The position numbers and the translations under genes were made by a program. A stretch of 64,000 nucleotides of DNA from Candidatus Methanomethylophilaceae archaeon (lineage in GTDB: Archaea > Thermoplasmatota > Thermoplasmata > Methanomassiliicoccales > Methanomethylophilaceae). The notes beneath the pieces were generated by a model. That model was not told the DNA's origin. It saw only the letters and a list, made by a program, of their open reading frames with translations, and searched no databases. The stretch is taken from assembly GCA_050944155.1 (NCBI GenBank), contig JBMNQN010000001.1, positions 32,001 to 96,000 of the forward strand, in the 5' to 3' direction. This document shows, piece by piece, positions 5,083-8,086 of the stretch. Numbering within the stretch: the first letter of the stretch is position 1; every line of letters starts with the position of its first letter.

Positions 5083-5592
5083 TCAGTCTTCGCAGATTAT
5101 TATACATGCGTCTTTCTGTTCTCCGTCTTCCGTGCGGAACGCCATGAACGTGCCGTCGGAAGGGTCGATGACTATTGCGAATCCGGTGCCGTTTCCGAAC
5201 ATGGAAACGTGCGTTTCTATATCCGTTTCGGACATGTAGCATCCGAATCCGGGATGGGAATGGTACCAGCCCACAATCGAGCCTCCGGTTTCGTCCATGG
5301 AGGCGAACAGTTCCTCGAATCCTTCGGGATCGAATCTCACGCTGGTTTCCGTCGAATCCAGTTCGGACGTCGCCGTGCCTTCGGCCACCGCATATTCTCC
5401 GCCGTCGTCTCTGTAAACCTCTCCGAGAACGAATCCCATGACTTCTTTTCCTTCGGCGAAACCCTCGTCGGCGTGATTAAGCATATTTCCAAGCGCTGAT
5501 TCGGAAACGAATAGGTCCGCTTTCTTCACCGTGCGTTTTCTGTAGGTTCTTTCCTTCTTTTCGAAAGAGATGATTTTAGGCATTGCCGTCAC
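5083..5592 (-). CDS. JAMM/MPN+ (Mov34) metallo-isopeptidase, Rpn11/CSN5-like
   Basis: EVMGFVLG (catalytic Glu), VGWYHSHPGFGCYMSETD (HxH-x7-S-x2-D), AIVIDP. Start is GTG 5592 or ATG 5583. Confidence 0.92.
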   Translation of the reverse strand: MTAMPKIISFEKKERTYRKRTVKKADLFVSESALGNMLNHADEGFAEGKEVMGFVLGEVYRDDGGEYAVAEGTATSELDSTETSVRFDPEGFEELFASMDETGGSIVGWYHSHPGFGCYMSETDIETHVSMFGNGTGFAIVIDPSDGTFMAFRTEDGEQKDACIIICED

Positions 5593-6061
5593 CGAATCTG
5601 ACTTCAGCCCTGAAGGCGGGTTTGTTTTCGATATACCAGCGGGACGCCTTCATGCAGGAATCCGTTCCGTAGGGACTCTTGGGATTCGGGTCTGCCAGAA
5701 GATTCTCCAGGCCCATGACGAACGACGTAAGGTTGGAACCGAAGTTCCAGTTGTCCAATATTTTCACGCAGACGTATCCGCCGTCTTCAGGCATCATTAT
5801 ATTGGGGTGGAAAATAGGGGTTTTCCAGGATGCTCTGGGTCTTTCGAAAGGATATTCTTCGGAGAGTATCAGTTCGAACCTGTGTTCTGAAGACATTTCG
5901 GTTTCAGAGATTCTCGCCGGCGAGTTCATCAGAACCACGCTAAGGGTTATGGGAAAAACCGCGTTCTCCGGAATACTTGGTATGTTCAGTCCGAGATACC
6001 CGTTCAGGCCGTTGATTTCGTTATTGATTCTTTTGACGAGAATCGGTTTGACCAGTCCCAT
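5576..6061 (-). CDS. Ubiquitin-conjugating enzyme E2 (UBC fold)
   Basis: YPFERP, IFHPNI, GYVCVKILDNW (Cys98), LLADPNPKSP all follow the UBC consensus. Confidence 0.9.
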   Translation of the reverse strand: MGLVKPILVKRINNEINGLNGYLGLNIPSIPENAVFPITLSVVLMNSPARISETEMSSEHRFELILSEEYPFERPRASWKTPIFHPNIMMPEDGGYVCVKILDNWNFGSNLTSFVMGLENLLADPNPKSPYGTDSCMKASRWYIENKPAFRAEVRFGDGNA

Positions 6062-6297
6062 CAGATTCCGCCTTCCGGGTCCGGAATCATTTCCACAACG
6101 TCGCCGTCCGAAAGGTTGGTTTCGGCGATGGTACGGCTTCCCAGAAGCAGTTTCGGCCCTTTTCTGAGGATGAAAGCACCCGCCCCCTCTCCCCAGTAGT
6201 CCGCCGCCGCATCGATTATGTCGGATATTTTTTCGTAAGGTTCCAGCTCCATCCGAATGGATGCTCCGGCCGCCGTGTTTACCACCGTAATTTTCAC
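6061..6297 (-). CDS. Ubiquitin-like protein (78 aa, beta-grasp) ending GG-I
   Basis: MKITVVN..IRMELEPYEKISDI..RTIAETNLSDGDVVEMIPDPEGGI parallels ubiquitin; lies between E1 and E2. Confidence 0.82.
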   Translation of the reverse strand: MKITVVNTAAGASIRMELEPYEKISDIIDAAADYWGEGAGAFILRKGPKLLLGSRTIAETNLSDGDVVEMIPDPEGGI

Positions 6298-6307
6298 TGT
6301 CGTTTTT

Positions 6308-7066
6308 TCACTTCCTCGTATGATTCGGACAATCTGGATCGATATCCAAAGAAACAGTGTCCAAAGTTCCTTTTTCCCCGTTGTAGTACGTAATTCCGCG
6401 GACGCATAATTCCTCTCTTCCCGAAATAATCTTTTCGGCTTCCCTCACCTGCAATGCCGCGATTATGGACGTAGTGGTAATCTCCGCTGCGGTATGGGGA
6501 ACGAACATGTGGGAATTTCCCGTACAGGAAAACCTCAGTTCTGCGATTTTTGAGTGGGTGGAATTCATGGCGCACTGAAGACAGGGGCCGTCCGCAACGG
6601 TCTGTACTTTTCCGGACATACCGTCGGTCGCACCGTCGATGTACGGGATTCCGTAGTATTTCGCGTGGGAGTTCACGTGAAGTCTGGCACTTATGTTGTC
6701 GAGACATCCGAGAATCAGATCGAAATCCCAGGACTTCAGTTCCCGTACGTCCGAAACTATTCCTTTCACGTCGGCGTCGGGAGACAGTTCGTTCGCTCTT
6801 TCGGCAAGTATGTCGCATTTCATGGGTCCGCCCGCGTCTTCTTCTCTGAAAAACACGCAGCGGCTCAGATTGGATTTTACGATATTGTCCGTATCTACAA
6901 CGGTTATGTCCCTGAAACCGGCCAGAACCGAACATTTCACGGCTTCGTTTCCCAGGGCTCCCGCGCCTACGACGAGAATCCTGGAATCGGCTATGCGGTC
7001 GATGTCAATCCATTCGATTCTTTTCATGCGGTCGAATCTGTCGGAATCCCGTTCTCCGGTCTTCAT
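6308..7066 (-). CDS. ThiF/MoeB/E1-family Ubl-activating enzyme
   Basis: ILVVGAGALG, DTDNIVKSNLSR, CLDN, PCLQC, FSCTG (candidate catalytic Cys), DPDCPNH. Start moved to ATG 7066. Confidence 0.92.
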   Translation of the reverse strand: MKTGERDSDRFDRMKRIEWIDIDRIADSRILVVGAGALGNEAVKCSVLAGFRDITVVDTDNIVKSNLSRCVFFREEDAGGPMKCDILAERANELSPDADVKGIVSDVRELKSWDFDLILGCLDNISARLHVNSHAKYYGIPYIDGATDGMSGKVQTVADGPCLQCAMNSTHSKIAELRFSCTGNSHMFVPHTAAEITTTSIIAALQVREAEKIISGREELCVRGITYYNGEKGTLDTVSLDIDPDCPNHTRK

Positions 7067-7137
7067 CGCACGGGCAGAGCTTCCGTGTAATAAAACACCG
7101 CGGTCTGTTTTATACTCCGAAAGACTATCGGAAAGAC

Positions 7138-7335
7138 ATGGCGGAACTGCCCGAACATTCCCACTGCCTGTTCTGCGGCGACCCTGTCGCTTACGGAGAG
7201 CAATTCTGTTCCGAGGACTGCGCCGGGCATTACGCAAAAAAGAAGAAAAAGGATTTTCTCAAAGAAAACGGATTTTACATCATAGCCGCAATCGGCATAA
7301 TCGTTCTTTCCGTCATTTTCTGGATGATGCGCTGA
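7138..7335 (+). CDS. DUF2116-like zinc-ribbon protein with a C-terminal membrane anchor
   Basis: HSHCLFCG..FCSEDC, a basic stretch and a hydrophobic C-terminal helix. Confidence 0.75.
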   Translation: MAELPEHSHCLFCGDPVAYGEQFCSEDCAGHYAKKKKKDFLKENGFYIIAAIGIIVLSVIFWMMR

Positions 7336-8086
7336 GTCTTTCGCAGGTTTTCTTTACGTTGTGAACCCTGACGATGGCGGCTCCGTGCTTCACGGCTTCC
7401 GCAGCCGCTTCCGCGGATGCGTCGTCGTCTCTGCGTCCGTATTCGAATTCCAGATATCTTTTCCTCGACGGACCTATCAGAACGGGGTATTCTTTTCCGA
7501 AATACGAAGCGCTCCTGGTCAGTTCCGAATTCAGTTCGTGGGTTTTTCCGAATCCCACTCCCGGGTCGAGTATGATTCTTTCCTTTTTTACTCCGCCCGC
7601 TATCGCTGCCTCGGCACGTCCGTTAAGGAATTCCCTTATCTGCGGCTTTGCGTCTCCGCTCATTTCCACGGAGTGCAGCTCGTTCGGTCCGCCGTGCATA
7701 TGCATTATTATTGCGTACGAATCCGTTTCCGAAACGACTTCGATCATTCCTTCGTTTCTCAGACCGTATACGTCGTTTATTACGGTCGCTCCGGCATCCG
7801 CCGCGGCGGCGGCGATTTCGGGTTTCATGGTGTCCACGGAAACGGGAACGTCCGAGGAGGACGTGAACTCCCTTATGACGTCGACTATTCTGGAAATTTC
7901 TTCCTCTGCGGATACGGGAATCCATCCGGGGCGGGTGGATTCGCCGCCCACGTCTATTATCGACGCGCCGTCGTCGACCATCTCGAAGGCTCTTTTCAGA
8001 GCGGCGTCCGTGTCCTTGTAGGAACCTCCGTCCGAAAACGAATCCGGAGTCATGTTGAGTATTCCCATTACGGCGGGATACTTCAT
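7313..8086 (-). CDS. folP: Dihydropteroate synthase
   Basis: VMGILNMTPDSFSDGG, IDVGGESTRPG, DPGVGFGK, SRKR, IVRVHNV. Confidence 0.95.
   Translation of the reverse strand: MKYPAVMGILNMTPDSFSDGGSYKDTDAALKRAFEMVDDGASIIDVGGESTRPGWIPVSAEEEISRIVDVIREFTSSSDVPVSVDTMKPEIAAAAADAGATVINDVYGLRNEGMIEVVSETDSYAIIMHMHGGPNELHSVEMSGDAKPQIREFLNGRAEAAIAGGVKKERIILDPGVGFGKTHELNSELTRSASYFGKEYPVLIGPSRKRYLEFEYGRRDDDASAEAAAEAVKHGAAIVRVHNVKKTCERLSASSRK

Follow-up and report, generated by a model that had tools for sequence, protein, structure and literature searches.

A probable eukaryote-type ubiquitin-like conjugation system with a RING candidate in Methanomassiliicoccales and related Thermoplasmatota

The window analysed here is a stretch of 64,000 nucleotides (nt) from Candidatus Methanomethylophilaceae archaeon (GenBank assembly GCA_050944155.1, contig JBMNQN010000001.1, positions 32,001 to 96,000), and the system in question is a four-gene operon for a ubiquitin-activating-type enzyme (E1), a ubiquitin-like protein (Ubl), a conjugating enzyme (E2) and a metallopeptidase of the JAMM type. 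According to profile searches, alignments, structure models and a survey of related genomes, the operon probably encodes a eukaryote-type system for ubiquitin-like conjugation that is resident in Thermoplasmatota and vertically inherited, and whose predicted partner is a RING-like protein encoded at an unlinked site. The original prediction, made from the letters of the window, had described a self-contained E1-Ubl-E2-JAMM set with intact motifs in a probable methanogen; the set is supported by Pfam matches, alignments and folds, and the organism belongs to Methanomassiliicoccales.

The four products of the operon

The four co-directional genes that had been predicted were all found, each on the minus strand (Table 1), and their spacing was as claimed: a gap of 10 nt separates the end of E1 from the start of Ubl, the TGA stop of Ubl and the ATG of E2 have one base in common (TGATG at 6063-6059), and JAMM overlaps E2, its ATG, which is backed by MPK(I/V)IS N-termini in relatives, lying 8 nt inside the E2 gene. 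A pattern scan over one genome per species yielded 75 loci, and homologues for the alignments (29 E1, 36 Ubl, 35 E2 and 27 JAMM sequences) were taken from related loci; the catalytic motifs were intact in each gene. Searches with the ThiF, UQ_con and JAB profiles, proposed together with the original prediction, all gave matches above the curated Pfam cut-offs, and the ubiquitin fold of Ubl and the UBC fold of E2, on which that prediction had been made to depend, were both obtained with AlphaFold2 and recognised by Foldseek.

The E1 product was matched by ThiF over residues 22-247 (2e-42) and has the features of an E1 of a canonical cascade, namely a glycine motif (GAGALGNE), an Arg finger (R69), an Asp (D123) and a Cys (C181), which together with K83, C162-x2-C165 and C246 were invariant in 29/29 aligned homologues; H249 of the C246-P-x-H motif was conserved in at least 90% of them. 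Judging from its position in the SCTG loop, C181 is probably the catalytic cysteine. The best sequence matches in the PDB were to eukaryotic Uba1 (4e-23; active adenylation domain) and then to SAE2 and UBA3, with MoeB (2.8e-14) and ThiF ranking behind these eukaryotic E1s. The protein is a bare ThiF core with neither a separate Cys domain nor a C-terminal ubiquitin-fold domain (UFD), only about 28 residues lying between CxxC and the AAEITTT helix, and in this predicted architecture it is unusual for a canonical cascade.

Ubl had no Pfam match, including none to ThiS. Its AlphaFold2 model (predicted local distance difference test, pLDDT, 90) takes a ubiquitin fold, for which Foldseek returned ubiquitin first (template modelling score, TM, 0.85; root-mean-square deviation 1.4 Å; 24% identity), followed by NEDD8 and SUMO. 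The segment I71-P-D-P-E-G-G77 was invariant in 36/36 sequences; behind it the homologues have 0-10 variable residues, and the window's Ubl has a single Ile. Such an invariant GG with a variable, apparently disposable tail is the signature of a processed, conjugatable modifier, as which Ubl is predicted to serve.

E2 was matched by UQ_con at 2.6e-15 (56.7 bits against a cut-off of 27), and eukaryotic E2s were its best PDB sequence matches (about 1e-10). Cys98, the predicted catalytic residue and the one named in the original prediction, was invariant in 35/35 aligned E2s within an equally invariant motif, IFHPNIMMP-x-DGG-x-x-C98, and so was a second cysteine, C136. The model of E2 (pLDDT 88) has the UBC fold, and its top Foldseek matches were eukaryotic UBC enzymes.

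The JAMM product was matched by JAB (1.3e-14), and E47, H108-x-H110, S118 and D121, which make up the MPN+ pattern, were invariant in 27/27 aligned homologues. Its best PDB sequence matches were Rpn11 (4.3e-14), CSN5 (3e-11) and then the Caldiarchaeum Rpn11-like protein (7e-8). The JAMMs of Methanomassiliicoccaceae carry an N-terminal (PPP..ER..AHKWL) and a C-terminal (WDEYQNPYYG..VR.R) extension, both missing in the window's family. Extension of the open reading frames (ORFs) yielded a frame of 389 amino acids (aa) spanning E2 and JAMM at L074:5983-7152 and a 385-aa JAMM frame at L024:6480-7637 (L, numbered loci; G, genomes; g, genera; f, families); these long ORFs could be fusions, read-through or assembly errors.

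Distribution of the operon and a RING-like candidate ligase

Methanomassiliicoccales, or archaea labelled close to that order, were the source of 74/75 loci, and 68/75 hold all four genes in the order E1-Ubl-E2-JAMM, a recurrence far beyond chance. Five of the 75 are interrupted by contig ends. In two of the 68 (L028 and L034, both Methanomassiliicoccaceae), unrelated genes are inserted between E1 and Ubl, E1 standing 2.5-4 kb apart from Ubl-E2-JAMM; the insert of L028 (1826-5321), a hybrid PAS sensor histidine kinase with a hemerythrin gene on the opposite strand, was considered as a component of the system and rejected. Identity to the window's E2 was 53-75% in most loci labelled Methanomethylophilaceae or Methanoplasma, 40-47% in Methanomassiliicoccaceae and 38% in the Methanarcanum locus L040. 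Two loci are of another kind: an uncultured archaeon has two tandem E2 copies (L060:5992-7013; 43-44% identity to the window's E2), with no E1, Ubl or JAMM match in this 12-kb locus, and a contig labelled 'uncultured bacterium' (L075) has E1, JAMM and E2 homologues of 35%, 31% and 31% identity in a different order and with longer ORFs.

The distribution of E2 was determined by whole-genome searches with the Pfam UQ_con model in 201 genomes of the order and 401 of the phylum. A match was obtained in 137/201 Methanomassiliicoccales genomes (93/140 high-quality ones), covering 33/37 genera; it was lacking in genera g7 (0/40) and g22 (0/4) and present in 7/16 genomes of g2. Across Thermoplasmatota 95/401 genomes matched, including families outside the order (15/15 in f13, for example), and none of 14 control genomes did. 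Other Thermoplasmatota families have the identical operon order at 40-48% identity (L084, L087-L090).

One flank of the operon holds a SIS-domain gene, an AP-endonuclease-2-like TIM-barrel gene and ORFs resembling ribosomal L18e, L13 and S9 (translations judged by eye); the other holds cofactor genes together with genes for a DUF2116 zinc-ribbon protein and a FolP-like, pterin-binding protein. In both major families of the order, SIS, AP-endonuclease-2-like and L18e genes are again found near the operon, and neither mobility or defence genes nor a CD-NTase gene were found among the operon neighbours in the window ORFs and a Pfam scan. The source genome measures only 1.04 Mb (92% complete), yet keeps the system. 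Gene-order synteny together with the wide distribution suggests vertical inheritance and a resident role, unlike a defence island; the housekeeping surroundings noted from the window alone recur across the order and favour a resident cellular role over defence, as the original prediction had it.

The original prediction had also stated that there is no E3 ligase. This holds for the operon, in or beside which no E3 gene was found in the window or in the 75 loci, but probably not for the genome, where a RING candidate co-occurs with E2, is operon-linked in other lineages and docks on E2 in a model. When the whole genome was searched with zf-RING_2, a single match below threshold (22.3 bits; cut-off 27.3) came from another contig, to a RING-H2-like protein predicted to be membrane-anchored (Table 1). 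Its N-terminus consists of a hydrophobic helix (residues 4-22 in a crude hydropathy scan) followed by basic residues, and it carries the motif C-x2-C-x11-C-x-C-x4-H-x2-C-x6-C-P-x-C and two further zinc ribbons. The eight ligands C-x2-C-x11-13-C-x-C-x4-H-x2-C-x5-6-C-P-x-C were invariant in 20/20 finger sequences, and a profile built from these 20 returned RING-H2 E3s at the top of a PDB search, namely Arkadia (1.3e-7), RNF165, AMFR, RNF4, RLIM, ZNRF3 and Hrd1, the first four at 1e-7 to 1e-6. Some family members also match Prok-RING_1 (up to 26.8 bits, sub-threshold), and RINGv (PF12906) had no match in the source genome. In 22/22 loci of the order, Pop5 and the proteasome alpha-subunit gene (psmA) are found no more than about 2 kb from the RING gene; in the window's own family they directly adjoin it, and in the source genome it is placed immediately upstream of Pop5-psmA.

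A docking model of E2 with RING protein residues 48-104 and two zinc ions scored 0.74, the best of 3 controls scoring 0.01; the mark passed by this model was reached by 58/80 solved complexes and by 2/110 mismatched pairs. The docking runs agree in at least 80% of contacts, with a partner pLDDT of at least 81, and the predicted contacts are made by E2 residues 3-15 (first helix), 72 and 106-110 with the C-x-I-C and C-P-Y-C loops of the RING finger, presumably through the canonical E2-RING surface. In at least nine genomes outside the order a RING match lies within 5 kb of an E2 match. Four loci, chosen for close E2/RING match coordinates, have a 1471-aa or 1547-aa protein ending in the finger directly upstream of Ubl-E2-JAMM (L124, L125), a 1435-aa finger protein upstream of E2-JAMM (L126) and a 409-aa protein with a signal or transmembrane (TM) segment, a TM helix and the finger upstream of E1-Ubl-E2-JAMM (L127).

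Within the order the RING protein was found in 138/201 genomes. E2 and RING occur together in 132, E2 alone in 5, RING alone in 6 and neither in 58; several of the 11 discordant genomes are incomplete, and three of the six RING-only genomes rest on matches at E > 1e-4. In genus g2 both are present in exactly the same 7/16 genomes. For the phylum a finger-only profile was used at E <= 1e-6, giving 85 genomes with both, 10 with E2 only, 24 with RING only and 282 with neither among the 401; a full-length RING-protein profile had been rejected for this count, as it matched 230/401 genomes because its C-terminal zinc ribbons match unrelated proteins (profile positions 114-220 in genus g7, for example).

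Natural knock-outs were compared in five complete or near-complete E2-negative genomes, examined at both syntenic sites. At the SIS site, one g2 genome (G030) has lost the E2 gene and keeps an E1-like ORF without the Arg finger, the GCLDN Asp and the SCTG Cys, a Ubl-like ORF ending without GG and a JAMM-like ORF with HxH replaced; another (G079) has a JAMM-like remnant only, two g7 genomes (G098, G106) have a Ubl-like ORF without GG only, and the g22 genome (G006) has no operon remnant. All five lack the RING gene at the Pop5-psmA site. The differing remnants point to at least three separate decay events, in each of which E2 and RING were lost together. The remnant ORFs may be pseudogenes or repurposed proteins. 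A general reduction in genome size does not account for the loss, as g7 genomes measure 1.5-2.3 Mb and those of the window's genus only 1.0-1.3 Mb. On these sequence comparisons and the docking model, the missing ligase is probably the unlinked, membrane-anchored RING protein beside the proteasome gene.

The DUF2116 protein was also considered as a hidden E3 and rejected: a single four-ligand site is all it has, its gene in L054 is found together with FolP at the opposite end of the operon, and in Methanomassiliicoccaceae it is not beside the operon.

Fingers of this type were also seen in other settings. In L127-L130, from other families, the finger stands at the extreme C-terminus after a TM helix; the L129 protein has Cohesin, PKD and CARDB matches above the Pfam cut-offs, and that of L128 has only sub-threshold PKD/Ig-like matches. 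A C-terminal finger after apparently extracellular domains recalls receptor-like TM-RING ligases. Five Thermoplasmatota genomes of 3-5.5 Mb (G266, G272, G311, G317, G323) have at least 14-16 finger matches, many of them at the C-termini of 1000-4900-aa ORFs, and 2-7 UQ_con matches, which looks like a marked expansion of the system.

Proposed pathway and alternative explanations

In the pathway proposed here, JAMM would trim the residue or residues behind the invariant C-terminal Gly-Gly of Ubl, and the minimal E1 would adenylate Gly77 and probably take Ubl as a thioester on Cys181. Ubl would be handed on to Cys98 of the UBC E2, and the membrane-anchored RING-H2-like protein would bring E2 loaded with Ubl to its substrates, probably on the cytoplasmic side of the membrane; JAMM would also remove Ubl from conjugates. 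Most likely, proteins tagged in this way would be handed to the 20S proteasome; the tag may instead act as a non-proteolytic signal. The link to the proteasome is suggested by the adjacency of the RING gene to psmA, by the Rpn11-like JAMM and by the 20S alpha and beta genes present in the source genome. A five-component pathway resembling endoplasmic-reticulum-associated degradation (ERAD), in which the membrane RING protein marks membrane or membrane-proximal proteins of Methanomassiliicoccales for the proteasome, is offered tentatively as one possibility. If it is true, E1-E2-RING ubiquitylation would be ancient in, or early acquired by, a lineage outside the TACK and Asgard archaea. In related Thermoplasmatota, on this reading, the same RING is joined to large surface proteins and has risen in number to at least 14 copies.

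Several observations weigh against a eukaryote-type system with this RING partner. In the E1, the missing UFD and Cys domain leave the recruitment of E2 unexplained, and no lysine of Ubl is invariant in the 36 aligned sequences, so that a conserved chain type is not evident. RING-H2 fingers usually have the spacing C-x-H-x2-H, from which the C-x-C-x4-H of the candidate departs, and zf-RING_2 matches were sub-threshold in 7/7 family members scanned (17-25 bits against 27.3). E2-RING complexes are textbook structures, and the docking pass may therefore reflect likeness only. Related genomes are not independent, so that the co-occurrence may come down to about three loss events, and the suggested proteasome link is one of gene adjacency. 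Moreover, the 10 E2-only genomes of the phylum are without this RING type, and the finger occurs without detectable E2 in f26 (12/15), f9 (5/5) and f11 (2/2); a lineage E2 profile likewise gave no match in 5 RING-only genomes, a search that had no positive control and shows little.

These fingers without E2 would also fit an E3-independent system, in which E1 and E2 alone conjugate Ubl and the RING-like membrane protein is unrelated. The absence of an E3 gene from all 75 operon loci points the same way, as does the bacterial Bil E1-E2 pair, which in the available text of bioRxiv 10.1101/2023.09.26.559546 conjugates without an E3. We nevertheless regard this alternative as unlikely in view of the tight match of E2 and RING (11/201 genomes discordant), the operon linkage of the RING-like domain to homologous cassettes in L124-L127, the joint loss of both genes from two separate syntenic sites and the docking model.

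Much less probable still is antiviral defence of the Bil or CBASS-Cap2 kind, with virion proteins as targets. Bil systems share the four activities, comprising in BilABCD an E1, an E2, a Ubl and a JAB deubiquitinase (DUB) with no dedicated E3, and the DUB removes a short tail to expose a reactive Gly, according to the part of bioRxiv 10.1101/2023.09.26.559546 available; PADLOC 'E1-E2' models match the present E1 weakly (best 6.5e-12, ThiF part only), and JAMM matches PADLOC JAB models and also BilC at 0.0025. However, E2 and Ubl match no PADLOC model, no system-level match was obtained, and the Bil analogy drawn in the original prediction was not upheld, the PADLOC models of BilA, BilB and BilD giving no match. 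As far as the same source describes them, Bil genes are ordered Ubl-E2-DUB-E1 in a defence context, their E1 has an inactive and an active adenylation domain and a CYS domain, and their E2 has a Cys/His (CEHH) motif, whereas the present genes are ordered E1-Ubl-E2-JAMM in a housekeeping context, with a 252-aa E1 lacking the inactive adenylation domain and an HPN-Cys motif in E2. Unlike the E1-E2 fusion of CBASS Cap2/Cap3, which lies beside a CD-NTase, E1 and E2 are separate genes here. Each operon gene occurs only once, the flanks hold neither defence nor mobility genes, and the place of the operon among ribosomal and cofactor genes is fixed across the order, which speaks for vertical inheritance.

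The remotest alternative is that Ubl is only a thiocarboxylate sulfur carrier (MoaD/ThiS/SAMP-like), with E2 and JAMM accessory or inert. The source genome (92% complete) gave no match to ThiS/MoaD (PF02597) and has a second ThiF gene (Table 1), so that the operon Ubl could be its sole beta-grasp carrier. Against this, ubiquitin, NEDD8 and SUMO are the structural neighbours of Ubl, the Cys and HPN motif of E2 and the active site of JAMM do not vary within the order, Uba1 is a closer match to E1 than MoeB or ThiF, and the operon has no linked gene for a sulfurtransferase or for cofactor biosynthesis. A side role of Ubl as sulfur carrier may exist, given the second ThiF gene and the missing PF02597 match.

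Known systems and remaining features

In the sampylation of Haloferax (SAMP/UbaA/JAMM1), an archaeal E1 activates a GG-ended beta-grasp modifier and a JAMM reverses the modification, with ThiS/MoaD-type modifiers and neither E2 nor E3. The present system differs in its conserved UBC E2, its ubiquitin-like Ubl and the absence of a PF02597 match in the genome, and in its predicted enzymes the operon resembles those of eukaryotes more than SAMP or Bil systems.

The operon of Caldiarchaeum subterraneum encodes Ub, E1, E2, a small RING finger protein and an Rpn11-like protein (PMC5654768, PMC6043591). As far as these sources extend, the same five activities are present here, counting the unlinked RING candidate; a Ub precursor is trimmed after GG by a stand-alone Rpn11-like JAMM, as is predicted for Ubl; and the E2 has a UBC fold, the enzymes being closer to eukaryotic than to SAMP/MoeB enzymes. 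The differences are that the RING gene is here unlinked and its product predicted to be membrane-anchored with extra zinc ribbons, that the Caldiarchaeum E1 is described in the available text of PMC11354881 as having a Cys domain of roughly 60 aa against the 252-aa ThiF core, that yeast Rpn11 is a better sequence match for the operon JAMM (4.3e-14) than the Caldiarchaeum protein is (7e-8), and that the host belongs to a euryarchaeal methanogen lineage. The Asgard systems, in the part of bioRxiv 10.1101/2023.07.25.550441 available, likewise combine a ubiquitin-like modifier with a cascade of E1, E2 and RING. The present system stands apart in its operon order, its minimal E1 and the RING gene adjoining a proteasome gene, and no linkage to endosomal sorting complex (ESCRT) or ubiquitin E2 variant (UEV) genes was seen here.

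Pieces of the system are already on record. In its tree of archaeal E2 and UEV proteins, the same preprint (2023) has a deep-branching 'Ca. Thermoplasmatota E2' clade. 'JAMM-3' prokaryotic JAMMs were described in 2018 in PMC6043591 in operons with Ub, E1 and E2 homologues, which its available passages contrast with the E3-bearing Caldiarchaeum and Asgard archaea and treat as E3-less; the likeness of an Rpn11/CSN5-like JAMM in a Ub-E1-E2 operon without E3 is one of description only. In 2015 an MPN protein of Methanomassiliicoccus luminyensis, a member of the same order, was reported as a PSMD14/Rpn11 orthologue alongside that of Caldiarchaeum, branching with eukaryotic PSMD7 and PSMD14 outside the archaeal JAMM1/JAMM2 groups (PMC4453063); it too was compared by description only, and the available part of that paper does not mention adjacent E1, Ubl or E2 genes or a RING partner. 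In the accessible text of PMC4327156, the single euryarchaeal genome listed is one of marine group II, which has RINGs and a ubiquitin C-terminal hydrolase (UCH). NCBI annotates the E2 of close relatives as 'ubiquitin-conjugating enzyme E2' and their Ubl as 'hypothetical protein'. In the literature on Methanomassiliicoccales or Thermoplasmatota and ubiquitin (full text, supplementary tables aside), no paper describing the operon, its synteny or a RING partner was found. The new elements are the unlinked, membrane-anchored RING candidate and the co-loss of E2 and RING.

For the archaeal ubiquitin systems examined to date (Caldiarchaeum, Asgard), which come from uncultured or barely cultivable organisms, no physiological substrates are known according to the available text of PMC5654768. 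Conservation across a methanogen order with cultured species would open the substrates, the link to the proteasome and the function of the E3 to tests in vivo, and the co-loss of E2 and RING with its degenerate remnants offers natural knock-outs for direct comparison. The breadth of the system in Thermoplasmatota bears on the origin of E2- and RING-dependent ubiquitylation.

RNA-library contigs from four runs (three digester/biogas fermenter studies) match parts of the operon at >=99% identity, and one of 1074 nt covers 5978-7051, that is, E1, Ubl and the start of E2. Positions 5128-5335 and 5856-5959 are uncovered in all four runs, gaps that are not interpretable. Such libraries may contain DNA, and their contigs show neither strand, ends nor a single transcript; the matches are a weak hint of operon expression. 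Upstream of E1, TTTTATTA is a possible archaeal TATA-like box, judged by the archaeal TATA consensus.

Table 1. Positions of the operon genes, the RING-like candidate and other features (window coordinates unless a contig is named)
Feature	Position	Strand	Remarks
E1 (minimal ThiF-type Ubl-activating enzyme)	6308-7066	minus	ATG start, 252 aa
Ubl (ubiquitin-fold modifier precursor)	6061-6297	minus	GTG start, 78 aa, ends ...IPDPEGG-I
E2 (UBC-fold conjugating enzyme)	5576-6061	minus	161 aa, predicted catalytic Cys98
JAMM/MPN+ metallopeptidase, Rpn11-like	5083-5583	minus	166 aa, ATG start
Possible archaeal TATA-like box TTTTATTA	7088-7095	minus	~25 nt upstream of E1 ATG, read from sequence
RING-H2-like, predicted membrane-anchored protein	source genome contig 2:22248-22781 (= L091:1246-1779)	minus	178 aa, outside window
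DUF2116 zinc-ribbon protein	7138-7335	plus	divergent neighbour of operon
FolP-like pterin-binding protein	7313-8086	minus	convergent with DUF2116 gene
Second, MoeB-like ThiF gene	source genome contig 6:50750-51415 (= L076:1492-2190)		adjoins CinA

The DUF2116 gene runs 23 nt into the 3' end of the FolP-like gene, and its product has a C-terminal stretch that is hydrophobic by eye. The two genes are kept together as a pair even away from the operon (L054).

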